DNA of 64,000 nucleotides from NCBI GenBank assembly GCA_963778745.1, contig CAVZVP010000007.1, positions 75,150 to 139,149 on the forward strand. Direction: 5' to 3'. This document shows, piece after piece, positions 4,542-64,000 of the stretch. The notes beneath the pieces were generated by a model. That model worked only from the letters and a program-made list of their open reading frames with translations, had not been told where the DNA came from and searched no databases. The DNA is from an uncultured Alphaproteobacteria bacterium. Lineage in GTDB: Bacteria > Pseudomonadota > Alphaproteobacteria > Rhizobiales > Xanthobacteraceae. Position 1 is the first letter of the stretch, and every line of letters starts with the position of its first letter. The position numbers were made by a program, and so were the translations under genes.

Positions 4542-4643
4542 CTTGAGACTTGAAGTTCCAGTTCCGCCGCCCGGTCCCTGAGAGGCTGGAGGCCACCGCC
4601 CGACAGCGCAATGCGCCCTCGGGCGTAAAGGTGTTTGTAAACG

Positions 4644-6191
4644 ATGTTCGATTCACTGTCGGAAAAACTGGGCGGCATTCTCGACCGCCTCACCCGCCGC
4701 GGCGCGCTTAGCGAGGCCGACGTTGACGCGGCGCTGCGCGAAGTGCGCCGGGCACTGCTCGAGGCCGACGTCGCGCTCGACGTGGCGCGCGCTTTCACCG
4801 ACAACATCAAGAAGCAGGCGGTCGGCGTTGAGGTGATGAAATCCGTCACCCCCGGCCAGATGGTCGTCAAGATCGTGCACGACCAGCTGGTCGCCACGCT
4901 CGGCGCCGATAGTCAAGGCATCGATCTTGCCGCCGCGCCACCGGTCGTCATCATGATGGTCGGCCTGCAAGGCTCCGGTAAAACCACCACCACCGCGAAA
5001 GTCGCTCGCCGCCTCACCGACCGTCAAAAGAAAAAAGTTCTGATGGCCTCGCTCGACGTGCGCCGGCCGGCTGCGATGGAGCAGCTCGCGGTGCTCGGCC
5101 GCGAAGCGGGCATCGACACGCTGCCGGTGGTCGAAGGTCAGCAACCACCACAAATTGCCAAGCGCGCGCTCGAAGCCGCCCGCCTCGGCGGCTACGACGT
5201 GGTGCTGCTCGACACCGCCGGCCGCACCACGCTGGACGACGCCATGATGAGCGAAGCGGCCGAGGTCAAGCGCGCCGCCAATCCGCACGAGGTGCTGCTG
5301 GTGGCCGACGCCCTCACCGGCCAGGACGCGGTCAATCTGGCGCGCGCGTTCGATGAGCGCGTCGGCCTCACCGGCATCGTGCTCACCCGCGTCGATGGCG
5401 ACGGCCGCGGCGGGGCCGCGCTGTCGATGCGCGCGGTCACCGCCAAACCGATCAAGCTGATTGGCACCGGCGAGAAACTCGACGCGCTGGAAGAATTCGA
5501 CCCCGCGCGCATCGCCGGCCGCATCCTCGGCATGGGCGACATCGTCGCGCTGGTGGAAAAAGCCACCGCCAATATCGACGCCGAAAAAGCCATGCGCGCG
5601 GCCGAGAAAATGCGCAAGGGCAAGTTCGATCTCGGCGACCTGCGCGAACAACTTCAGCAGATGCAAGGCATGGGCGGCATGAGCGGCCTGCTCGGCATGT
5701 TGCCCGGCGTGGCCAAGATGAAGAACCAGATCGCCGCCGCCGGCCTCGACGACAAGCTCGTGAAGCGGCAGATGGCGATCATCGATTCGATGACGCCACA
5801 GGAGCGCCGCAACCCGGACATTCTCAAAGCCAGCCGCAAGAAGCGCATCGCGGCCGGCTCCGGCACCACGCCGGAGGCGATCAACAAGCTTTTGAAAATG
5901 CACCGCGGCATGGCCGACATGATGAAGATGATGGGCAGCGGCAAGCGCGGCCCGCTCGCCGGCCTGGCGCAAGCCATGGGTTTCGGCTCCGCTATGCCGA
6001 CCCCGGAGCAGATGGCGGAAATGGCGAAAAACATGCCGCCCGGCACACAACTGCCGCCCGGCATGCCGGGTCTGCCGCCGACCATGCCGAAATTGCCGCC
6101 GAATTTCCCCGGCACGCCCGGCCTGCCGGGCCTGGGTGGAAAGTTTCTTGGATTGCCGGGCGGTCTGCCCGGTCTCGGAAAAAAGAAGTGA
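4644..6191 (+). CDS. ffh: signal recognition particle protein Ffh
   Basis: 515 aa; N domain [10 protein letters not shown] domain [10 protein letters not shown] / DTAGR / TRVDGD, Met-rich M domain, Pro/Gly-rich tail. Confidence 0.95.
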
Positions 6192-8551: not shown

Positions 8552-9958
8552 ATGGCGAAACCGCGCACCCTCTACGATAAGATCTGGGACGACCATCTGG
8601 TGGACGAGGCACCGGACGGAACCTGTCTGATCTATGTCGACCGCCATTTGGTGCACGAGGTGACCTCACCGCAGGCCTTCGAGGGTCTGCGCACGGCGGG
8701 CCGCAAGGTGCATGCGCCCGACAAGACGCTCGCCGTGGTCGACCACAACGTGCCGACCTCCGACCGCAACAAGCCCAATCCCGATCCGGAAAGTGCCGAA
8801 CAGATCGCGGTCATGGCGCAGAACGCCAAGGACTTCGGCATCGAATATTTCAACGAGTTCGACAAGCGCCAGGGCATCGTCCACATCATCGGCCCCGAGC
8901 AGGGCTTCACGCTGCCCGGCACCACCATCGTGTGCGGCGATAGCCACACGGCGACGCACGGTGCCTTCGGCGCGCTCGCCTATGGCATCGGCACCTCGGA
9001 AGTCGAGCACGTGCTGGCGACGCAGACGCTGATCCAGAAGAAATCGCTGAACATGCGCGCGGTGGTCGACGGCCAATTGCCGCAGGGCGTCACCGCCAAG
9101 GACATCATCCTCGCCATCATCGGCGAGATCGGCACCGCCGGCGGCACCGGTTACGCGCTGGAATATGCCGGCGAGGCGGTACGCGCCTGCTCTATGGAAG
9201 GGCGCATGACCATCTGCAACATGTCGGTGGAAGGCGGCGCCAAGGCGGGCTTCGTCGCGCCCGACGAGAAAGCCTACGCCTATCTCAAGGACAAGCCGAA
9301 AGCACCCAAAGGCAAGGCCTGGGACGAGGCCATGCGCTATTGGGAAACTCTCTCCTCCGACGATGGCGCGCATTTCGATCGCGAGATCAAGCTCGATGCC
9401 GCCAAGCTGCCGCCGCTGGTCACCTGGGGCACCAGCCCCGAGCAGGTGGTGACGATCGCCGGCCGCGTTCCGGTGGCTGCCGATATCGCGGACGAAAAAA
9501 AGCGCGTCGCCGCCGAACGCTCGCTCGGTTATATGGGACTCAGCGGCGGCGAGAAGATCACCGACATCAAGCTCGACCGCGTGTTCATCGGCTCATGCAC
9601 CAATGGCCGCATCGAGGATCTACGCGACGTCGCGCGCGTCGCTGCCGGCAAGACGGTGAACGCCAATGTCTATGCGATGATCGTGCCCGGCTCCGGACTG
9701 GTGAAGGAGATGGCGGAAGCCGAAGGGCTCGACAAGATTTTCAAGGCCGCCGGTTTCGACTGGCGCGAGCCGGGCTGCTCGATGTGCCTCGCGATGAACC
9801 CGGACAAGCTCAAGCCGGGCGAACGCTGCGCCTCCACCTCGAACCGCAACTTCGAAGGCCGCCAGGGCTACAAGGGCCGCACGCACTTGGTGTCGCCCGC
9901 TATGGCGGCAGCCGCCGCAATCGCCGGGCATTTCGTCGACGTGCGGGAGTGGAAGTAG
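8552..9958 (+). CDS. leuC: 3-isopropylmalate dehydratase large subunit
   Basis: 468 aa; aconitase-family motifs [52 protein letters not shown]. Confidence 0.95.
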
Positions 9959-48834: not shown

Positions 48835-49419
48835 CTAGGCGGCGCGCGCAATGAGCCGCTGGATTGTGCCGTCGGCCGCCCGCGCGACCGTTCCATCAAA
48901 CAGAATCTCCTGCCCGGCCAAGGCGCGGCGCACATGATCGCTAACATAGGCCGTGAACAGCCGGCCATCCTTTTCGCGGCGGTCGGCATTCTCGGTTATG
49001 CGGAAGCTCATGTAAATCACGCCGCCCGGCTTGAGGATCTCCAGCATACGGCCGACCGCCGGCGCAATTTCCTCGCGCGGCAAATGCATGATGACGGTCT
49101 CGCAGCATACATTGTCGAAATGCCCCGCCGGAATTCCGCTCAACTCGGGCAGCGTGACCTTGTTGTATTCGATGTGCGGAAAGCGGGCGCGCGCTTGCGC
49201 CAAAAGGCCCTCCGACAGGTCATAACCGAAGGTCGGGAATCCGTTGGCAGTAAGCCAGGCCGCATCGCGTCCGCTGCCTGAACCGATATCGGCGGTGAGG
49301 CCGGGCCGGAAAAATTGCCGGAACAGCGCATACAAATCGGCCGGTTCATTCTCGGTGAGCCAGCGCTGCACAAAGGCCGGCGCTGCCGAGTCATAGGTGG
49401 CAAGCGTTGTCTTATCCAT
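48835..49419 (-). CDS. class I SAM-dependent methyltransferase
   Basis: 194 aa; motif I ADIGSGSGRDAAWL, motif post-I/II present. Confidence 0.75.
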   Translation of the reverse strand: MDKTTLATYDSAAPAFVQRWLTENEPADLYALFRQFFRPGLTADIGSGSGRDAAWLTANGFPTFGYDLSEGLLAQARARFPHIEYNKVTLPELSGIPAGHFDNVCCETVIMHLPREEIAPAVGRMLEILKPGGVIYMSFRITENADRREKDGRLFTAYVSDHVRRALAGQEILFDGTVARAADGTIQRLIARAA

Positions 49420-49421
49420 GC

Positions 49422-49712
49422 TCAGCCGGCGAGTTTATCCATCGTCTCGGCGAGCTTGATGTCAAGTTCGGTCACCCCGCCGGCGTCGTGGGTCGACAGC
49501 GTCACCTCGACGGTCTTGTAGACGTTGAACCACTCCGGATGGTGGTCCATTTTTTCCGCCACCAGCGCCGCCCGCGTCATGAAGCCGAAGGCCTGGTTGA
49601 AATCCTTGAACACGAATTTCTTGGCGATCGCGTCACGGCCGGCCACCTCGGACCAGCCGGCGAGCTTGCCCAAGGCGGCCCTGCGGGCGTCTGCAGTCAA
49701 TTTCTGCGCCAT
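49422..49712 (-). CDS. phhB: pterin-4-alpha-carbinolamine dehydratase
   Basis: 96 aa; [27 protein letters not shown] signature. Confidence 0.9.
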
Positions 49713-49805
49713 GACATTGCCCTCCTAGGCGAACGCGCAACCCTCGCAAAGGGTCCGCCGCGATATTACCTCTTAAGCGGCAATCCCGACCATATGAGGC
49801 ATTTC

Positions 49806-50924
49806 ATGTCCTGGTCATTGAACATCGGCAAGGTGGCCGGCACGGTTGTGCGTATCCATTTGACCTTCCTGCTGTTTCTCGCCTGGATTTTCGCCGCCAG
49901 TTATAGCCAGGGCGGCGCGGCCACCGCCTGGGACAGCGTCATATTCATGGTGCTGCTGTTCCTCTGCGTGCTGCTGCACGAGTTCGGCCACATCTTCACC
50001 GCGCGCGCCTTCGGCGTGGCGACGCCCTATGTGACATTGCTGCCGATCGGCGGCGTCGCGCAACTCGAGCGCATTCCGGAGGAGCCGGGGCAGGAATTTC
50101 TGATTGCGATCGCCGGCCCGCTGGTGAACGTGGTCATCACGATCCTGCTGGTGGCGATCGGCGGCGCGACGTTGCAATCGAACGCCGCGGCCGGTCTCGA
50201 CAATACGCAATTTTCGCTGATCGACCGACTGGCGGCAGTGAACGTGTTCCTGGCTTTGTTCAACATGATCCCGGCCTTCCCGATGGACGGCGGCCGCGTG
50301 CTGCGCGCGCTCTTGGCAAGCCGCATGGGCTATGTGCGGGCGACCGAAGTCGCCGCCGCCATCGGCCAGTTCGTCGCCTTCGCGCTCGGGTTTATCGGCC
50401 TGATGTACAATCCGATCCTGATCTTCATCGCCATCTTCGTCTATCTCGCAGCTTCGTCGGAAGCGCACATGGTGGCGCTGCGCGCCGCTTCGCGCGGCGT
50501 GCCGGTGAGCCACGCCATGGTGACCCATTTCGAGACGCTGACGCCCGAGGAACATCTGGACGCGGCGGTGCAGACCTTGCTGCAAACCGGTCAGGGTGAA
50601 TTCCCGGTGGTCGATGCTGCCGGCAAGCCGATCGGCGTGCTCGGCCGCGGCGACCTGATCCGCGCCATCAAGCAGCGCGGCCCCGACGCGCGCGTAGCAG
50701 GCGCCATGATTGCTAATATGCCGACCCTCGGCCACCGCACAACCCTTGAGCAGGCGTTCAAGCTGCTGCAGCAGAAGCAGGCGCCGGCGGTCGGCATCAC
50801 CGATGCCGGCGGTAAGCTGGTCGGGCTGGTCACCGGCGAGACCATCGCCGAAATGATGATGCTGCAGGAGGCATTGTCGCGCGGCAGCCAGGCCGGGCCC
50901 TGGGGCCGTCCGGCCGGGGCGTAA
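49806..50924 (+). CDS. site-2 protease (M50) family protein with tandem CBS domains
   Basis: ATG 49806; LLHEFGHIF and NMIPAFPMDGGRVL motifs; C-terminal CBS pair. Confidence 0.8.
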   Translation: MSWSLNIGKVAGTVVRIHLTFLLFLAWIFAASYSQGGAATAWDSVIFMVLLFLCVLLHEFGHIFTARAFGVATPYVTLLPIGGVAQLERIPEEPGQEFLIAIAGPLVNVVITILLVAIGGATLQSNAAAGLDNTQFSLIDRLAAVNVFLALFNMIPAFPMDGGRVLRALLASRMGYVRATEVAAAIGQFVAFALGFIGLMYNPILIFIAIFVYLAASSEAHMVALRAASRGVPVSHAMVTHFETLTPEEHLDAAVQTLLQTGQGEFPVVDAAGKPIGVLGRGDLIRAIKQRGPDARVAGAMIANMPTLGHRTTLEQAFKLLQQKQAPAVGITDAGGKLVGLVTGETIAEMMMLQEALSRGSQAGPWGRPAGA

Positions 50925-50973
50925 TAGCGGCCTACCCGATGAGCCGCCTGGCCGGTTTCGGCTCGATTCCTGC

Positions 50974-51658
50974 ATGCTCCGCGACGCAAAGATTGGCGAT
51001 GCAAATGAGCGCGCGCTAGTCTTGCCGGCCGGGAAGGCCGCAAAGATCGCGTCGAAAGGGCTGGCATGCACGATATCACACGGGATCTGGACAGCCGCGA
51101 AACGACCGACTGGGTCAGCGTGGACGTGCTGGCCGGCCTCTACGCGCAGGGCATCCTCGCCGAGCACTTCCGCTGGGCAGAGCTGGAGCAGCTTGTCTAT
51201 TCCGCTGATCGCTGGGAGCGCCGGTTGGTCGGCTCAACGGTGGCGAACGTCCCGCATGGCTTGCCGCGCCGCGCCGTCAGGAGCTGGCTCGTACTCCCGG
51301 TTTGACGCTCATCAAATCGCTGATCGGCGACGCAGAGCCGGACGTACAGAAGGCACTTTCGTGGGCGCTTCGCTCATGGTGGGAGGTCGACCCGTTCGGC
51401 ACGCGCGAGTTCATCCGCCAGGAGGCGATGCGCGCTCGATCGGAGAATGACGGCCACCGCGCTTGGGTGATGCGCGACGCACTGACCCTGCCCGGCATCG
51501 ACACCGGCTTCATCGAGGAGATCCGCGACCGGCTCGAGGGCGTTCGCCGGACCCCCGGCGCGCCGTCGACCAGCGCCGCGGCGGAGATCGCGGCCCAGTT
51601 CAAGGGTCTGCAGGAGCTGGCAGGCGCCGCCGTCGCCCAGCAGGGGAGCCGTTTCTAG
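50974..51658 (+). pseudogene. DNA alkylation repair (AlkD-like HEAT-repeat) protein, N-terminally truncated and frameshifted
   Basis: WVSVDVLAG...SADRWERRLVGS in one frame, LTLIKSLIGDAEPDVQKALSWALRSW in another (junction ~51250, another ~51008). Only about 45 codons are available upstream instead of about 100. Confidence 0.5.
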
Positions 51659-51675
51659 TGACCGGTAACGCTTAA

Positions 51676-54230
<2,555 letters not shown>

Positions 54231-54289
54231 CCGGTGGCGACGAGACACCGGCGTGACGGCACAGCCACTGGAGAGCGGGAGCCGCGTGA

Positions 54290-55372
54290 CGTCGTTCGGC
54301 TTCGAGCCAGTCGAGCCGCGCCATCGGCGAGACGCTTCGACCTCTACACCGGCAACGCCAACCCGCGAGCTGGCGCGCAAGATCGCGCGCTACCTGGACG
54401 TCGACGCTGGGCCAGTGCGAGGTGTTCGAGTTCGCCAACGAGAACATCTTCGTCAAGATCCTGGACAACGTCCGCGAGCACGACGTCTTCCTCGTCCAGC
54501 CGACCTGCTCGCCGGTCCAGAAGTCGATCATGGAGCTGCTGATCATGATCGACGCCTTCAAGCGCGCGAGCGCCGGGCGCATCACGGCCGTCGTGCCCTA
54601 CTACGCCTACGGCCGCTCGGACAAGAAGGACCAGCCGCGCGTGCCCATCACGGCGCGCCTCATCGCGGACATGATCAGCGTCGCGGGCGCCGACCGGCTG
54701 CTCACGATGGACCTCCACCAGGGCCAGATCCAGGGCTTCTTCAACATCCCGGTCGACGAGCTGACCGCCGTCCACCTGCTCTCGCAACCACTTCATCCAG
54801 AAGCGACCTCGAGGACCTGGTCGTGGTCACGGACCTCGGCTTCGCCAAGCGCGCCCGGACGTTCGCCGAGATCCTCGACGCGCCGCTGGCCATCATCGAG
54901 AAGCGCCGCCACGGCAACGACGACCGGGCCGAGGTGCTCAACGTCATCGGCGAGGTCAAGGGCAAGCGCGCCATCATCGTCGATGACGAGATCGACACGG
55001 CGGGCACGCTGATGGAGATCGACCCGCGCGCTGGAGCGCGAAGGCGTCACCGAGATCTACGCCTGCGCCACCCACGGCGTGCTGTCCGATCCGGCGATCG
55101 ACCGCATCCGCGACTCCGAGCCTGACGCGAGGTGGTCATCACCGACACCATCCCGCTGCCGCCCGCCAAGCAGCTGTCGCAAGATCAAGGTGCTGTCCGT
55201 CGCGCCGCTCATCGGCGAGGCCATCCGCCGCATCCACCGCGGCGAGTCGGTCGGCGCGCTGTTCTCGGCCGAGATCAAGCTCGTCCAGGAGATGGTGCTG
55301 TGGGACGAGCGGGTCGCCGAAGGCGCCCGCGACGACATCCGCGAGCCATCGCTTACGATGCAGCGAACATGA
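54290..55372 (+). pseudogene. prs: ribose-phosphate pyrophosphokinase, reading frame broken at least 7 times
   Basis: LYTGNANP / ELARKIARYLDV / FEFANENIFVKILDNVREHDVFLVQ...MELLIMIDAFKRASAGRITAVVPYYAYGRSDKKD...DLHQGQIQGFF / DLVVVTDLGFAKRA...IIVDDEIDTAGT / KIKVLSVAPLIGEAIRRIH, across alternating frames. 5' end approximate. Confidence 0.8.
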
Positions 55373-55606
55373 GTCTGCGTCTCTATCGCCCGGGTCCCGA
55401 CGGCCTCGAGCCGAGCCCCGGTCGAAGTCCGGACCTGGCGCAGCCGTCTGCGCTCGCGACGTTGGAAGCCGGCGGCTTTGGACAACCCGGAGTTCGCGCC
55501 GACCAGCCAGCGGCTGGCCGTCATCTTCTGGCTGGCGCTCGCGCTGCTTACGTTCGTGACCATCCTGGTCGGCTACGGCGTGGGTCTGTGGCACCTGCCC
55601 GCGTGA
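55369..55606 (+). pseudogene. possible small C-terminally membrane-anchored protein (frameshifted)
   Basis: ATGA overlap with prs stop. MSLRLYRPGPDGLEPSPG, then in the next frame EVRTWRSRLRSRRWKPAALDNPEFAPTSQRLAVIFWLALALLTFVTILVGYGVGLWHLPA. Confidence 0.25.
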
Positions 55607-55621
55607 GGGGCACGACTGCTG

Positions 55622-58600
55622 TTGCGCTGCTCTAACTGCGGTACCGAAAACCAGCCGGGCGCCAAGTTCTGTCTCGAATGCGGGACAGCGCTGGCCGCTG
55701 TCTGTCGTAACTGCGGGGCAGGACTGTCGGCGTCGGCCAAGTTCTGCCAGGAGTGCGGCACGCCGACCGGCGAAGTTCCTGCGCTGGCGAACGGCCAGGC
55801 TGCGCACGCAGAAGCGGCGCCGATCGCCGAGCTCCGCCTCGTTTCCATCTTGTTCGTCGACCTCGTCGGCTTCACCTCGCTTGCCGAGAAACGGGACGCC
55901 GAGGAGACGCGCGAGCTGCTCGGCCGCTACTTCGAGCGGCGCGCGAGATCGTCGGCCGCTACGGCGGAACGATCGAGAAGTTCATCGGCGACGCGGTCAT
56001 GACGGTGTGGGGCGCGCCGGTCGCCCACGAGAACGACGCCGAGCGCGCTGTGCGCGCCGCCCTCGACATCGTCGGCGCAGTGCCGACGCTGGCCGAAGGC
56101 CTCGAAGCGCGCGCCGGCGGTGCATGACCGGCGAGGCGGCAGTGACCATTGGCGCGACGAACCAGGGCATGGTCGCCGGCGACCTGGTCAACACGGCCAG
56201 CCGGCTGCAGTCGGTCGCGCCGCCCGGGAAGTGTCCTTGTCGGTGAGGCCACCCACCGCGCCGCCAGCGCGGCCATCGTGTTCGAGGCGGCAGGCGAGCA
56301 GTTGCTCAAGGGCAAGCAGGCGCCGGTGGCCGCATACCGCGCCGTACGGGTCATAGCCGAGCGCGGCGGTCGCGGTCGATCGGACAGGCTCGAAGCGCCG
56401 CTGGTCGGTCGCGAAGACGAGCTGCGCCTGCTCAAGGAGCTGTTCCACGCAACCGCTCGCGAGCGGCGGGTCCGGCTCGTGTCGGTGACCGGCCAGGCCG
56501 GTGTGGGCAAGAGCCGCATCACGCGCGAGCTGTCGCGCTACATCGACGGCATCGTCGAGACCGTCTACTGGCACCAGGGACGCTCACCGGCGTACGGCGA
56601 GGGGATCACCTTCTGGGCACTGGGCGAGATGGTCCGCGAACGCGCCGGCCTCGCCGAGTCGGACGACGAGGCGACCACCCGCGCGCAGCCTCGCTGAGAC
56701 GGTCGCGACCTGGGTGCCCGACGAGCAGGAGCAGCGCTGGATCGAGCGCGCTCTGCTAGCCCTGCTGGGCATCGAAAGCGCCGCTCAGAACACGCGCGAA
56801 GAGCTCTTCTCGGCGTGGCGGACGTTCTTTGAGCGCATCGCGGCGGTCGGGCCGGTCGTGCTCGTGTTCGAGGACCTCGAATGGGCCGACCCGGCCTGCT
56901 CGACTTCATCGACCACCTGCTCGACTGGAGCCGCAGCCTGCCACTGTTCATCGTCACGCTCTCGCGGCCCGAGCTCATCGATCGCCGCCCTGAGTGGGGC
57001 GCCGGCCGGCGCAACTTCGTCTCGATCGGCCTCGAACCGCTGCCTGAGCCTCAAATGCGAGAGCTGCTCGGCGAGCTGGTGCCCGGCCTGCCCGAGCGCG
57101 CCGCACGCTCGATCGTGGCGCGCGCCGACGGTATTCCGCTGTACGCGATGGAAACCGTGCGCATGCTCGTCGCTGAGGGCAAGCTGGTCGAAGCCAAGGG
57201 TGCGTACCAGCCTTCGGCCGACTTGTCGACGATCGCCGTGCCGGAGACACTTCACGCGCTGATCGCCGCGCGCCTCGACGCCCTCGAGCCTGTCGAGCGC
57301 AGCCTTATTCAGGTTGGCGCCGTGCTCGGCCAGAGCTTCACCCTTGGTGCGCTGGCCGCCGTTGCCGCCCTGTCGGGAAGCTGACATCGAAGAGCACCTG
57401 CGCAACCTGGTCCGACGTGAGCTTCTCATCCACGAGTCGGATCCGCGATCGCCCGAGCGTGGGCAATACGCCTTCGTCCAGGCGCTCATCCGCGAAGTCG
57501 CCTACGGCACGCTGGCCAAGGCCGATCGCCGCGCACGACACCTTGCCGCGGCGCGCTACTTCGAGTCAATGGGCGAGGACGAGCTGGCCGGCGCGCTGGC
57601 CGCCCACTACCTCGCTGCCTACCGCGCCTCAGCTGCCGGCCCCGAGGCCGATGCGCTGGCGGCTCAGGCACGCATCTCGCTAAAGGCAGCTGCTTCGCGC
57701 GCGGCGGCGCTGGGCAGTCCCGACCAGGCGGAGAGCCATTTCCTGGCGGCCGTCGACGTGACCGACGACCCGGCCGAGGCCGCCGACCTGTTGGAGCAGG
57801 CTGGTTTGGCCGCGCGCAGCGCCGGCCGGCACCAGGCCTGCCGAGGATCACCTGCGCGAGGCCATTGAGCGCCATCGCCAACTGGGTGACCGCGTCGGCA
57901 CAGCGCGGGCCGTCGGCAGACTTGGGTTGGCGCTGATTCCGGCTCATATCCCGCAAGCGATCGAGGTCCTGGAGCCGGCGGTCGACGAGTTCATCGATCT
58001 CGGCGACAGCGAAGAGCTGGCCATGATCGAACACCAGCTGGCGCGGGCTCATTGGCTCAGCAACAGGAACGAGCCGGCCCTCGTCTATGCCGACCGCGCT
58101 CTCGGCCGCGCCGAACGCATCGACTCCACCGCCCTCATCGCCGACATCCTCATCACCAAGGGCTCGTTGGTGCAGGCGAGTGGTCGCGGCCATGAAGGGG
58201 TCGCTCTGCTGCGGGCGGGCAAGGAATTGGCCGAGGCTAATGAGCTGACAGCGACCGTTACCCGCGGACTTCTTAACCTGAGCGCTTCTGGCAATGGCAT
58301 TGACCCGCGCCAGTCGTATCTCGATGCCCGCGAAGCGGTCCAGCTGGCACGTCGTTACGGGCTGCGTACGACGCTCTACACCGCCGGAGGCAATGCCATC
58401 GAGTCGGCTGTTTCGGTTGGCGAGTGGGCGTGGGCTGCGGCCGAGGCAGAACGGCTGATGACCGAAGACATCGAAGCCGTCGATCGCTTCGTCGTCTACC
58501 GCGGCGCCGAGGAGTTGAGAGCCTTCCGTGGCGAGCCAGTCGAGCAGATGCTGGCCGAACACGCCCACTTCATCAGCGGCGACGAGAACCCTGTCAATCA

Positions 58601-59102
58601 GTCCAACTACTCGGCCGCCAAGGCAGCGTACGAGTTCAGTACCGGCCTTTACCGCCCCGCGGCCGACAACTGGGAACGATCTGCCCAACTGAACTTCACC
58701 AACGCGCCCAGCGACTTGCCGCGCGCGGTCCGCGCCGCCCTGTGGATGAGCGACGTTGCGCTGGCGCAACGCCTGATTGGCGAGTACGAGGCGCTGCACG
58801 TGTTTGGAGCCTTTCCGAGCGCTTGGCGCGCGACCTACGCTGCCGGCGTGGCCGCGCTCCAGGGACGCCGAGACGAGGCCCTCGCTCTGTTCGCCGACGC
58901 CCAACTCAAATGGCCTGCGGCCAGCGTCATCTTCGAAGGAGCGCTGATCGGCATCGACATGCTCTTGACTCTCGACGCCGACGAACCGGCCGCACGCATG
59001 GCCGCGGAGACGTCAAGAGCCACCCTCGCCGAGTTGGGCGCTAAGCCCTTTGTTGAGCTAATTGACCGGTTGCTGGCAAAACCGGCTGCCGATTTCATCT
59101 GA
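55622..59102 (+). pseudogene. double zinc-ribbon + class III adenylate/guanylate cyclase + AAA(P-loop) ATPase + TPR-like protein, frame broken at least 7 times
   Basis: RCSNCGTENQPGAKFCLECG...CRNCG...AKFCQECG; cyclase LRLVSILFVDLVGFTSL, GTIEKFIGDAVM, GDLVNTASRL; Walker A VTGQAGVGKS; long helical-repeat C-terminus intact from ~57840 to stop 59102. Confidence 0.8.
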
Positions 59103-59112
59103 GAGGGCGGCA

Positions 59113-59555
59113 GTGACCGCACCGGCCAGCTGATCGCCTTCATCCGTTCGAGCGGCGCGCGCCCGCTGCGCTTCCTGGTTGTCGGTGGCGTCACCTTCGT
59201 CCTGCAGTACGGACTGCTGCTGCTGTTCGAAGCACCCGGATTGGACCCGAACGTGGCCTACGCGCTGGCCCTGGCTGTGGCCGTCCAGTTCAACTTCGTG
59301 GTCAGCCAGCTGCTCGTCTGGCCCGATCGTCCGCTGCACATCACGCTGGGCGATGTCTTGCGCCGCTGGGTCAGCTTCATCGCCATGATCGCGCTATCAC
59401 TGGTCATCAACCTGGGCGCTTTCATCATTGCCCGGGCGTTCGTCTCCGACCTGCCCGCCGCCGCCATCGGCGTGGCCGCGTCGACAGTCATCAAGTACCT
59501 GTCGCTGGACCGCTACACCTTTTCGAAGACGAACAGGTTGTTCAAGCCGAATTGA
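59113..59555 (+). pseudogene. GtrA-family membrane protein (probable frameshift at ~59128 near the start)
   Basis: Frame open from 59103 reads ...LIAFIRSSGARPLRFLVVGGVTFVLQYGLLLLF...KYLSLDRYTF but has no start codon. GTG 59113 lies in another frame and stops after 6 codons. Confidence 0.6.
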
Positions 59556-60061
59556 AAGCGCTGCCAGCGCTCCAGCTTGAAATCGGGCGCCGGGAAGATG
59601 TCGACCGTCTTTTCTGCTTTAAAGCCGTAGTGCTCATGCACAGCGATGCCGTCGACGAGGCGCAGTGCCGATAGCACATGCAGGATCGAGTCGACGCGGG
59701 CTGAAGGCACCGTCGCCACGATCCGACCACCAGGTTTGAGCATGCGCGAGCAGGCCGACGCCAGCTCCGCTTGCCGATCGGGCGGGATGTGCTCTAACAC
59801 GGCGAACATCGTGATCAGATCGGCGCGAACGTCCTGCGGCACAGCCTCTGGGAAATTGCCCGGGCACAGCTCGTAGTTGGGCCCAGTTTCGTGCTTCTCC
59901 AGGGCGGGGTCCACGCCGACGCCGCGGCCGATCAGCCCGTGCCACTCCTTGAACATCGCACCATCGGCGCAGCCCACGTCGACAACGACGTCGCCCTGCT
60001 TGACGAAGGGCCGGCCACGCTTGATGCGCGCCGACTGCAGGTAACGGTCGAGAAACTTCAT
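59513..60061 (-). CDS. class I SAM-dependent methyltransferase
   Basis: Real start MKFLDRYL (60061), ATGA overlap with the GT2 stop; VVDVGCADG motif I; upstream part of ORF 59513..60574 is out-of-frame overlap with the GT2 gene. Confidence 0.7.
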   Translation of the reverse strand: MKFLDRYLQSARIKRGRPFVKQGDVVVDVGCADGAMFKEWHGLIGRGVGVDPALEKHETGPNYELCPGNFPEAVPQDVRADLITMFAVLEHIPPDRQAELASACSRMLKPGGRIVATVPSARVDSILHVLSALRLVDGIAVHEHYGFKAEKTVDIFPAPDFKLERWQRFQFGLNNLFVFEKV

Positions 60062-61231
60062 GGCACCCGCGTCCCACGCTGCGGGATCTCCATCAGGCTG
60101 GCGAGGAACGCGACCAGCCACAGTTGAACGGCGGCAACGAACCCGGTCAGCGACAGGGCAAAGACACGCACCACGCTCGGGTCGGGCAGCGGGCCAAAGT
60201 TGACCGAAACCCACTGGTACACGGACCACGCCATGCCCATCAGGGTAACGATGAAGAGCACGACTCCAAAGACCAACAGCCGCTCGGGCGACAGTGCACG
60301 TAGAAACGCGGAATAGCGCGTGGACGGTGGCAACAGGCCGCGCAGCGTGGCATAGCGACGGGCCACCGCGGCGAACGTGATGCTCTGGACGCCTATCAAT
60401 ACCGCCATGCAGGCGGCAATGAATGTGTTGATGCCAAGCGTCGAAGCACCCAGCTTGATATCGCCGGGGAAGAGTACGAGAACCCCGGCCAGGCCGACCG
60501 CCAAGAGCACCAATCCGGGATACAGGAACAGCCAGCGCGGGCTGTAGATCAGCAGGAATCGCAGGTGGCGCCAACCGTCGCGCCAGGTGTTGAGGTGGGG
60601 CGGTCGGGATCGGCCGTCCTTCGACAGCGTCGTCGGCACCTCGGTCATCCGATAGTCGGCCAGCGCAGAGCGAACGACCATCTCGCTGGCGAACTCCATG
60701 CCGGTCGTCGACAGCCCCAGTTCGCGGATACGGTCGCGGTTGAAGCCGCGCAGGCCGCAGTGGAAATCGCCGATGGGGATGGAGAAGAACAGCCGGCCCA
60801 AACCGCTCAAGACCGGGTTGCCCAGGTACTTATGCGACGCCGTCATCGCTCCCGGCGCGATGCCGCCCTTGAAGCGATTGCCCATCACGACGTCGTAGCC
60901 CTCGCGCAGCTTCTCGACAAAGGGCATCAGCGACGAGAAGTCGTAAGACTGTGTCGGCGTCGCCCATGATCACGTAGCGGCCGCGCGCCGCCTCGATACC
61001 ACCCAGCAGCGCCGACCCGTAGCCACGTTGCGGCACCGGCACCATGCGCGCCCCTTCGGCGACGGCGATGTCGCGCGAGCCGTCGGTGCTGCCGTTGTCC
61101 GCGACCACGACCTCGCCGTCGACGTGATTGTCGGCAAGGAACTGGCGCGCCTGGCGCACGCACGCGGCGAGCGTCTCCGCCTCGTTGAGGCAGGGCATCA
61201 GGATGGTCAGTTCGAGATCCGGCTCCGCCAT
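60058..61231 (-). pseudogene. family 2 glycosyltransferase with C-terminal TM helices (polyprenyl-phosphate glycosyltransferase, GtrB/ArnC/DPM1-like), one frameshift
   Basis: MAEPDLELTILMPCLNEAETL...VVADNGSTDGS...YVIMGDADT in one frame, YDFSSLMPFVEKLREGYDVVMGNRF... plus 4 TM in the next; junction ~60950. Confidence 0.8.
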
Positions 61232-61233
61232 CT

Positions 61234-62829
61234 CTAGTAGCTGATCCAGGTCCAGCCGAATAAGTGGGCGGTCGCGAACTGGAAGATCCAGAGCACGCCC
61301 CACAGATTCACCAGTACGCCCGCGCCGACCAGCAACGCCTCATACCACTGCACTTTGCGGCCGATGGCGATGAAGATGAGCAACAGCATGTAGGGCATGT
61401 AGTCGAGCGTGTAGCGGTAGCCGAATTGGGCGTAACCGGTGGCCGCGAACGTCGCGTTGGACACCGCGATGACCAGGATCGCCGCCCACGCGGCGAGCAC
61501 CAGCCGATCCCGCGCGATCACTGCCGCGATCAGTGCGGCGACGATGGCGGCGGCGAAGGGCAGCAGGTGTAGTCCGGTCGCGTACAGATCGTTGCCCCAC
61601 TTGGGATCGGCGAAACCTTGCACCAGGGCGCGGAAGATCAAGAAGCTGCACGAAGCAAAAAGGCCGAAGGCAATCAGCAGCGCCAGCGGGCGCGCGTATT
61701 TCTTGAGATGGATGAACGGAATCAGCAGGATGGCCGGCGTCGTCACCCACGTCGCGAGTGCCCACCATGACGGCCAGATGAACGGGGGCGTGTCCGCCAC
61801 GTTCGGCATCTGCTCGAAGAACGCTTGCACGTGCAGGTGGAAATAGTTGATCGAGGCGATGCCGTAGGGCCACGAGCTGGCGAGGTGGATCTGATGGAAC
61901 TGCTCGCTGTACGTATAGCCCGTCTCGAACGGGCTGCCGAAGCGGGCGTAGTTGAGCGCGGCGCCGAGCAGGATGAATGGCGCCACGCCGAGTGCCAGCT
62001 TCACCAGCGGCTTGATGTTCAGGCGCTGTAAGAGAGGAACTCCGGGGGCAGCGTTCAGCCACTCGTTGGCGAAGTAGATCAGCGGGAAGATGCCGCCGAA
62101 GACGGTCGTCGGTCGGCACAGGAATGCCGCGCCGACAAAGGCACCGGCCAGGATGGGACTGCGCCTGACGAGCGTCGCCCAGATCGACAGCATGATGAAG
62201 AAGAAGGCGGTGGTGTGGGCGAAGTGCCAGACGCCGCCGTCGGACGCGCTGTACCAGTAGGTCGTGCCGAAGGCGGCCAGCACGGTCAGCACGAACTGCG
62301 TCCGCCGGTTCTCGACAAAATGGCGAATGATCGCGAACGCAACGACCGCCGCGAGCGCGCCGATGACACATGAGATCAGAGTCTGGTTGACGTCGAGTCC
62401 GAAGAAGAACGCAAAGGGGATCAGGAGGATCGCCGGGCCCAGAGAGTGCTGCATGTAGCTCAGGCAGTTGGCCGTGATGCGCGGGTTGACGACGTCCGCA
62501 TACGACGCCGGGCCGCGCGGGTCGTTGACAGGCAGGCAGAAGCCCTGGCCGTCGTACAGGACCCGTTCGAGAACGCTCAGGTTGCGCGTGTACTCCGCGG
62601 TCATGTCGAGGTGGCCGTGGATCATGTTGTTGGCCTGCGACAGCTGGAAGTCGTACGCAGTCTTGTGCGGCCCCAGTGCCCAATAGACAAGGAACGTGGC
62701 AACGAAGACGAGGATGCTCGCCTTGATCGCGTACTTGCGCTCTTGAGTCAGCTCGTAGCGCCAGCCGATCGCCGGCAGGGTCAGGGCGCGGACATTCGGC
62801 GACGGTTGTCCGGTCTGGGAATCAGCCAT
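61234..62829 (-). CDS. GT-C-fold-like polytopic membrane glycosyltransferase (ArnT/PMT/GT39-like by topology)
   Basis: Start MADSQTGQ (62829) avoids overlap with the divergent gene. 531 aa, at least 12 TM, first large loop with acidic/aromatic motif region. Placement after GT2 and near GtrA. Confidence 0.6.
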   Translation of the reverse strand: MADSQTGQPSPNVRALTLPAIGWRYELTQERKYAIKASILVFVATFLVYWALGPHKTAYDFQLSQANNMIHGHLDMTAEYTRNLSVLERVLYDGQGFCLPVNDPRGPASYADVVNPRITANCLSYMQHSLGPAILLIPFAFFFGLDVNQTLISCVIGALAAVVAFAIIRHFVENRRTQFVLTVLAAFGTTYWYSASDGGVWHFAHTTAFFFIMLSIWATLVRRSPILAGAFVGAAFLCRPTTVFGGIFPLIYFANEWLNAAPGVPLLQRLNIKPLVKLALGVAPFILLGAALNYARFGSPFETGYTYSEQFHQIHLASSWPYGIASINYFHLHVQAFFEQMPNVADTPPFIWPSWWALATWVTTPAILLIPFIHLKKYARPLALLIAFGLFASCSFLIFRALVQGFADPKWGNDLYATGLHLLPFAAAIVAALIAAVIARDRLVLAAWAAILVIAVSNATFAATGYAQFGYRYTLDYMPYMLLLIFIAIGRKVQWYEALLVGAGVLVNLWGVLWIFQFATAHLFGWTWISY

Positions 62830-62957
62830 TCGGGCCGGAGTGTGCCACAGCGCAGGCAACGACCGATGCCTGACTAAGGTTTCACGAGACGGCCCGTTGT
62901 GGGGCAGACGGTCGGCCGGCCGCGTATGATCGGCGCTCGTCACAAGGCAGGAGCGAC

Positions 62958-64000
62958 GTGGCCAACGACGAACCGCCGGCCCGTCAGCCGGGCTATCGAC
63001 CACCCGACAATCGACCCACTCCGGCGCCGGAAGGGGCACAGCCGAGCGCCAGCCGGCTGAGTGTTGACGTCGCGCCGCGCTACATCCGGCTGCAGCCGGG
63101 CGAAGTTGTGACGGCGACGATCAAGGTCCGCAACATGGGCTCGGTGGTCGACGAGATCACGCTCACGCCGCGCGGCGAGGCGGCTGCCTGGATAACGGTC
63201 GCGCCCGACACGCTGAACATCTACCCCAGCACCGAGGGCGAAGCGACTATCCGCTTTGCCCCGGCCCGTGCGCCGCGCCCGCCGGCCGGCCTGTTCGCCT
63301 TCGAAATCGCCGTCAACTCCGACCGCCAGCCGGCCTCGTCGATGGTCTACCGCGGCTCGGTCGAGCTGGGCGCCTACGACAGCCTGACGGCAGCCGCCAC
63401 CGGCACCACTTTCCTGTCCGGCCGGCGCGACGCGATCCTGCCCATCAAGGTGCGCAACCAGGGCAACCGCCCGACCAACGTGCAGGTGTCCGCGGCCGAC
63501 CTGCCCGGCGCCAACGTCATCCTGTCGGCGCCCGCCTTCGCCCTCGAGCCGGGCGGCGAGGCGACGGTGTGGGCGACGATCAGGCCGCGCTCCGGCTTCA
63601 TGTCCGGCCCGCCGCGCCAGTTCCCCTTCACCATCTCGGTCAGCAGCGACTACTCCGCGCCGCTGACCATCGACGGCCGGATGGAGCAGCAGGCCCGCTT
63701 CAGCCGCAAGCGCCTCGTCGCCGTGGGCGTGCTGGCCGCCGTCCTGCTCACCGTCGGCGGCGTCTTCGGGGCCAACGCGCTGGGCCTGCTGCCACCACTT
63801 ACCGGCAGCGGTCCCACGCCGACGCCGGCGGTGACCGCCAGCGCCGCCATCACACCGCCGCCGTCCGGACAGTCGACAACCGGGCCAACAACTGGGCCGA
63901 CCGACAAACCGACAGGTGGCCCGACGGCGAGCGTGGAGGTAACCAACGGGCCAACGCCGACGATTACCCCTTCGCCGACACCGACTACTGATCCATTCGC
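62958..64000 (+). CDS. membrane-anchored surface protein with two Ig-like (CARDB/NEW3-type) domains and Pro/Thr-rich tail; 3' end outside window
   Basis: Not in the ORF track because it has no stop. GTG 62958 after GGAG. Twin modules ...GEVVTATIKVRNMGSVVDEITL... and ...AILPIKVRNQGNRPTNVQV..., TM LVAVGVLAAVLLTVGGVF, then TPTPAVTASAAITPPPSGQSTTGPTTGPTDKPTGGPT. Confidence 0.6.
   Translation, partial: MANDEPPARQPGYRPPDNRPTPAPEGAQPSASRLSVDVAPRYIRLQPGEVVTATIKVRNMGSVVDEITLTPRGEAAAWITVAPDTLNIYPSTEGEATIRFAPARAPRPPAGLFAFEIAVNSDRQPASSMVYRGSVELGAYDSLTAAATGTTFLSGRRDAILPIKVRNQGNRPTNVQVSAADLPGANVILSAPAFALEPGGEATVWATIRPRSGFMSGPPRQFPFTISVSSDYSAPLTIDGRMEQQARFSRKRLVAVGVLAAVLLTVGGVFGANALGLLPPLTGSGPTPTPAVTASAAITPPPSGQSTTGPTTGPTDKPTGGPTASVEVTNGPTPTITPSPTPTTDPF

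Follow-up and report, generated by a model that had tools for sequence, protein, structure and literature searches.

The 64,000-nucleotide stretch of DNA analysed here (referred to below as the window) is almost certainly an artificial join of DNA from two organisms, rather than a product of biology: positions 1–51105 belong to a Pseudolabrys-like alphaproteobacterium and positions 51107–64000 to a Limnocylindria-like member of the Chloroflexota. Pseudolabrys is a genus of Xanthobacteraceae (Hyphomicrobiales), and both lineages are common in soil. The original prediction had also read the structure as a chimeric join and not as an integrated island, and this is borne out by three observations: the native continuation differs for each side, the right side is a single collinear block of Chloroflexota DNA, and the quality of the consensus shifts at the joint. 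The most likely source of the window sequence is a long-read metagenome assembly. The features on which this interpretation is based are listed in Table 1.

The two parts differ in composition, with a GC content of 0.628 for positions 1–51105 versus 0.676 for positions 51106–64000, reaching 0.694 in the first 6.8 kb to the right of the joint. The comparison of tetranucleotide profiles that had been proposed as a check revealed a clean switch of signature at the joint, each side matching its own reference genomes (r = 0.994 for the left side against Pseudolabrys-like contigs and 0.992 for the right side against the Chloroflexota contig L009). All eight left-hand chunks were correlated more strongly with the left side (r = 0.98–0.99) than with the right (0.91–0.93), and both right-hand chunks more strongly with L009 (0.98) than with the left side (0.93). 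GC content dips to 0.645 at 58–63 kb; a return to alphaproteobacterial DNA was considered for this region and rejected, as the region is collinear with a Chloroflexota metagenome-assembled genome (MAG) and shares its tetranucleotide signature. Separate taxonomic classification of the two sides, also proposed beforehand, gave a Pseudolabrys-like left side and a Chloroflexota right side.

The joint and its two flanks

The joint was positioned by alignment to relatives of either side. L008, a Pseudolabrys-like soil contig from JGI, aligns with positions 49286–51105 of the window at 94% nucleotide identity with a single gap, and two Chloroflexota contigs, L001 (1.06 Mb) and L002 (0.72 Mb), align at 84–86% from position 51107 on. 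The last base with alphaproteobacterial support is thus 51105 and the first with Chloroflexota support 51107, base 51106 being ambiguous. A four-way alignment showed the switch to be blunt, without overlap, spacer or microhomology, and the bases around the joint are fully explained by two genes, both severed mid-gene: a glutaminase gene cut after codon 13 and an AlkD-like gene lacking about 75 codons. The abrupt lineage switch predicted for positions 50925–51070 is therefore present, but it lies 35 bp to the right of that interval, which contains a native alphaproteobacterial spacer (50925–51065) followed by the start of the glutaminase gene. Only one truncated gene had been predicted at the joint; the truncation of the AlkD-like gene stands, but the glutaminase stub (51066–51104) was overlooked, so that there are two. 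The predicted loss of 50–60 codons from the N-terminus of the AlkD-like protein was correct in kind and too small in size: in L002 the gene starts at position 9222 and homology to the window at 9446, which places window position 51107 at 224 nt (about 75 codons) into the gene.

Searches for features that might accompany a biological insertion were all empty, as predicted for tRNAs, N-spacers and direct repeats: no tRNA was found across the 64-kb window, the window sequence contains no N characters, and no meaningful repeat was detected at the joint or within 800 bp of the interval 50925–51070. A 45-mer spanning the junction was not found in GTDB representative genomes or JGI metagenomes. The reading frame by chance runs on across the joint, giving rise to a spurious 80-codon fusion ORF (51066–51305) composed of the 13 glutaminase codons and the middle of the AlkD-like gene, which a gene caller would report as a hypothetical protein.

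On the left, the last intact alphaproteobacterial gene encodes a site-2 (M50) protease with 97% amino-acid identity to a soil-metagenome protein (P0121) and 90% identity to a protein labelled Pseudolabrys sp., and it has no frameshift relative to its homologue in L004. In six related contigs (L003–L008), the native order is M50 protease, a spacer of about 150 bp, glutaminase (a glutaminase-STAS-cNMP protein of 618–620 aa in relatives), bipA/typA and a GNAT acetyltransferase. Residues 1–13 of the L008 glutaminase match window positions 51066–51104 with 100% identity (tblastn). The left-hand gene list had been described as typical of Hyphomicrobiales, and this description agrees with the 90–97% identity of the M50 protease to Pseudolabrys-like proteins and with spot checks, which showed ffh (with an Rfam ffh leader), trmD, leuC, sdhA, sdhB, argG and rlmN to be full-length. 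Seven left-hand genes beyond the 44.1–50.9 kb set considered below are single ORFs with full-length Pfam coverage. The Rfam ffh sRNA/leader (RF01793, 52.9 bits) lies at 4582–4633, directly upstream of ffh (4644–6191). A 194-aa SAM-methyltransferase gene (48835–49434), located between the DUF1232 and pterin-4a-carbinolamine dehydratase genes, is shared by the window and L003 and missing from L004–L007, indicating that it is a strain-variable gene of the Pseudolabrys-like lineage.

On the right, the window is collinear with Chloroflexota (Limnocylindria-like) genomes from 51107 to about 63830, at 80–86% nucleotide identity, and the native order in both L001 and L002 is parA-parB-gyrB-AlkD-like-gyrA-prs. 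A database with one genome per GTDB species was searched with the intact 531-aa membrane protein (61237–62856, minus strand); two loci were matched, L009 and L010, both in a single MAG, "uncultured Chloroflexia bacterium MFD00392.bin.2.278". Between positions 51171 and 63830 the window is collinear with L009, at about 81% nucleotide identity, so that the whole right side is a single stretch of Chloroflexota chromosome with its native order preserved (12.7 kb). The gyrA and prs products had been said to carry peptide signatures that are not alphaproteobacterial; all four peptides quoted are present, and the frame-corrected GyrA is 87–91% identical to Chloroflexota GyrA, many of the named matches being "Candidatus Limnocylindrales". 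The broader label of Chloroflexota/Actinomycetota-like DNA can accordingly be narrowed to its first half, there being no need for Actinomycetota. In NCBI, some near-identical GyrA of the Chloroflexota type (P0035, P0036 and P0117) bear the labels Candidatus Caenarcaniphilales, Deferrimicrobium or Sulfotelmatobacter; they probably stem from other MAGs that are contaminated or mislabelled. Further to the right, ORFs 60058–60927 and 60830–61303 overlap in different frames, and the product of the gene at 60061–61231 may be a family 2 glycosyltransferase (GT2), a label read from the sequence; a Pfam scan of part of this gene (60058–60927) returned no family, and none was returned for the membrane protein.

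Table 1. Features at the joint and on either side of it (window coordinates).
Feature	Position	Strand	Basis
Site-2 (M50) protease with CBS domains, 372 aa, last intact alphaproteobacterial gene	49806..50924	+	Pfam PF02163, PF00571
Native spacer, M50 protease to glutaminase	50925..51065	.	Within the 94% alignment to L008; also covered by L003–L007
Start of glutaminase-STAS-cNMP gene, 13 codons MHDITRDLDSRET (codons = 51066–51104), severed at the joint	51066..51105	+	tblastn
Breakpoint	51105..51107	.	Alignments of left and right relatives
AlkD-like gene, 3' part (DNA_alkylation, PF08713), about 75 N-terminal codons missing, 1–3 frameshifts	51107..51672	+	L002 homology, Pfam, frameshift-aware alignment
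gyrA, full length, 16–17 frameshifts (mostly one extra base), 0 stops	51676..54250	+	Frameshift-aware alignment
prs (ribose-phosphate pyrophosphokinase), 8–9 single-base insertions	54294..55369	+	Pfam PF13793, PF00156, PF14572
Short conserved Chloroflexota gene, product of 76 aa in L001/L002, 1 frameshift	55369..55594	+	L001/L002 comparison
Large regulator (double zinc ribbon, AAA_16 ATPase, TPR), 8 frameshifts, 0 stops; L009 copy intact, 1169 aa	55622..59130	+	Pfam, frameshift-aware alignment
SAM-dependent methyltransferase, inside the Chloroflexota-collinear block	59513..60100	-	Pfam Methyltransf_23/25/11; L009 collinearity
Homologue of a 390-aa L009 protein, 91% identical, 1 frameshift	60061..61231	-	Frameshift-aware alignment
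Polytopic membrane protein, intact; 87–88% to MFD00392.bin.2.278 protein	61237..62856	-	Frameshift-aware alignment
Beginning of another Chloroflexota gene, product of 763 aa in L009; runs off the window	62911..64000	+	L009 comparison

Frameshifts on the Chloroflexota side

On the right, genes are broken up over different reading frames, a feature that went unnoticed in the original prediction. Frameshifts were counted with a purpose-built, frameshift-aware alignment of protein to DNA against the intact genes of L009. The right side contains about 35 in all, almost all consisting of one extra base: 16 in gyrA, 8 in prs, 8 in the regulator with zinc-ribbon, AAA_16 and TPR domains, 1 in the GT2-labelled gene and none in the membrane-protein gene; against L002, gyrA has 17 and prs 9. 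Their density peaks beside the joint. The same method, applied with short-read JGI homologues to the last eight genes of the left side (44.1–50.9 kb), found no frameshift in 5769 coding nucleotides, versus 24 in the approximately 3.6 kb of gyrA and prs (Fisher p = 1e-10). By this proxy, consensus quality differs between the two sides. It had also been stated that GTG and TTG starts become frequent to the right of the joint; this cannot be used, as the frameshifts break the right-hand frames and render mechanically assigned ORF starts meaningless. Two homology-free detectors of frameshifts, a GC3 frame plot and a GC3-filtered tiling of open frames, proved too coarse in high-GC DNA, and plain tblastn was abandoned for counting, as its gapped HSPs merged across frames; it was kept only for the 13-codon glutaminase stub.

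The indels of the gyrA–prs segment are highly asymmetric, with 24 window-specific insertions (21 of them of a single base) against one deletion. The insertions do not lie in homopolymers, and platform errors of the homopolymer type were rejected on this ground. Once their frames are corrected, gyrA, prs and the regulator gene contain no stop codon, and the corrected GyrA agrees with the 60 other GyrA sequences of the alignment at each of their 426 invariant columns, of which individual relatives miss 0–4. The inserted base is the alternative allele of a relative at the adjacent column in 18 of the 21 single-base cases (86%); for example, the window reads CG where one relative carries C and another G. 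Random insertions were simulated and run through the same alignment procedure as a control. They matched an alternative allele in only 18% of cases (observed versus simulated, p = 3e-11), leading to the rejection of aligner bias as the source of this pattern. Fifteen of the 21 single-base insertions in gyrA–prs create a CpG.

Long runs of frameshifted housekeeping genes are also a feature of the pseudogene-rich, decaying DNA seen in reductive evolution. Bacterial gene decay is, however, deletion-biased, and the window shows none of the signs of relaxed selection that were sought (stops, changes at invariant residues and a deletion bias). It differs from decaying DNA in having no stops and almost no deletions (1 versus 24 insertions), in its unchanged invariant residues, and in insertions that stack alleles, and a second locus, L010, displays the same pattern of frameshifts. 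The allele matches at 18 of 21 insertions, taken together with the absence of stops, the 0 of 426 invariant changes and the 24:1 excess of insertions, thus argue for errors rather than decay, and the right-hand frameshifts would be consensus errors arising from mixed strains ("allele stacking"). We know of no mutational process that inserts an alternative allele in tandem.

It is unlikely, though conceivable, that the right side is instead uniformly low-coverage raw long-read sequence carrying random platform errors (such as those of insertion-rich PacBio CLR reads) and not a mixed-strain consensus. The dominance of insertions, their location outside homopolymers and their greatest density beside the joint would all be compatible with this, but random errors would not coincide with the relatives' alternative alleles (86% in the window, 18% in the simulation), nor would they leave the 1.6-kb membrane-protein gene clean, a gene that is also error-free in L010. 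Under either reading the join is still an artefact.

L010 is a public contig of 1.58 Mb. Relative to L009, its gyrA has 22 frameshifts, its regulator gene 31, its GT2-labelled gene 9 and its membrane-protein gene none, the protein encoded by the latter being identical to that of L009 at 541 of 543 positions. MFD00392.bin.2.278 therefore holds the gyrA-prs-regulator-GT2 locus on two contigs (L009 = CAWAAF010000006.1 and L010 = CAWAAF010000002.1), the L010 copy having about 63 frameshifts relative to the L009 copy; this doubling of single-copy genes is strain redundancy or contamination.

Origin of the join

The mechanism favoured here would be as follows. The right side is most probably the consensus of a Chloroflexota population that was heterogeneous, with both alleles written in tandem where strains differ, producing single-base insertions that break the frames; the left side is a clean consensus, from a well-resolved population. 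The link between the two may have been created by a chimeric read or by an error in the assembler graph, yielding a chimeric contig. A repeat-mediated misassembly was considered and rejected: no repeat is shared at the joint, which is more readily explained by a chimeric read or a blunt concatenation than by a misjoin at a repeat.

Blunt concatenation of two contigs from a contaminated bin accounts for the sequence just as well. According to this reading, which is a serious possibility although somewhat short of even, the contigs of a multi-contig bin were placed one after another with no spacer between them, and no assembler join took place; the left contig would end 40 nt into the glutaminase gene, and the next, a Chloroflexota contaminant of the bin, would begin inside the AlkD-like gene. 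A blunt joint without overlap, repeat or microhomology, the severing of the glutaminase and AlkD-like genes at arbitrary positions, and a consensus quality that differs per side, as it would for separate contigs of different populations, are all consistent with such a concatenation. That the junction 45-mer does not occur uninterrupted in GTDB representative genomes or JGI metagenomes points the same way, but is uninformative, as the window's own proteins are likewise missing from those collections. A binning error would also be required, placing a contig with a GC content of 0.68 and a Chloroflexota signature together with an alphaproteobacterium at 0.63, and no feature of the sequence separates a concatenation from a chimeric contig.

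A genuine transfer between phyla appears very improbable. It would have brought at least 12.9 kb of Chloroflexota chromosome into the glutaminase gene of a Pseudolabrys-like host by illegitimate recombination, followed by decay. The sole support for such an event is the contiguity of the two parts in the sequence as given, although contact would be possible, both lineages being present in soil. The abrupt change of composition and taxonomy within syntenic host DNA does resemble that at a horizontally acquired genomic island. However, there is no integrase, tRNA target, flanking repeat or other mobile-element signature; the cargo is origin-proximal core housekeeping DNA from the donor chromosome in donor gene order; consensus quality changes at the boundary; and host DNA does not resume in the 12.9 kb available, the window ending inside Chloroflexota-collinear DNA. 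Transferred genes in decay would, moreover, be expected to show relaxed selection, but there are no stops and none of the 426 invariant GyrA sites is altered; the 24:1 excess of insertions runs against a deletion-biased decay, and 18 of the 21 inserted bases duplicate an alternative allele. Still more remote is a combined scenario, in which the Pseudolabrys-like host truly carries at least 13 kb of Chloroflexota DNA from near the chromosomal origin, with gyrA and prs, inside its glutaminase gene and the stacked alleles were introduced during polishing by reads from co-resident Chloroflexota. An inter-phylum transfer of core gyrA/prs DNA would be remarkable if true; the evidence here is against it.

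Artificial joins of this kind have precedents. Multi-phylum chimeric contigs are a documented class of error of long-read metagenome assemblers; they betray themselves by sudden shifts in GC content, coverage and gene taxonomy, or by single-copy genes that do not belong (10.1101/2025.04.22.649783). The window resembles them in its shift of GC content and gene taxonomy at one point and in the presence of a second organism's single-copy core genes, and frame-corrupting indels are also described in that paper. They were, however, defined by read clipping and a change in coverage (10.1101/2025.04.22.649783), whereas the join described here is known from sequence alone, and a plain concatenation looks identical. 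The window equally resembles a contaminated MAG bin, in that two unrelated soil lineages occur in one record, with a foreign gyrA and prs that the host must have elsewhere; a foreign contig in such a bin, however, usually has a record of its own, whereas here the foreign DNA is continuous with the host DNA, without a spacer.

These results matter for quality control and not for biology, as DNA of two phyla shares a single record: everything to the right of position 51106 (12.9 kb) should be removed or split off from the alphaproteobacterial genome ahead of work on its gene content, horizontal transfer, single-copy markers or pseudogenes. They also provide a test for mixed-strain consensus error, as opposed to gene decay, that does not require reads, based on frameshifts confined to one side of a taxonomic breakpoint, nearly all of them +1, with invariant residues left intact and the alternative allele of relatives repeated.

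Related assemblies may be similarly affected. The "MFD" in the name of MFD00392.bin.2.278 would point to the long-read Nanopore project Microflora Danica, in which Nanopore reads were assembled with Flye in meta mode and polished with one round of Medaka (PMC12313526). Split genes are present in L001/L002 (ftsW, a PBP gene and secA) and in L003 (rlmN, an ADH gene, the glutaminase gene and folD), contigs belonging to ENA assemblies ERZ25039554 and ERZ25039517, which suggests similar indel errors in those assemblies.
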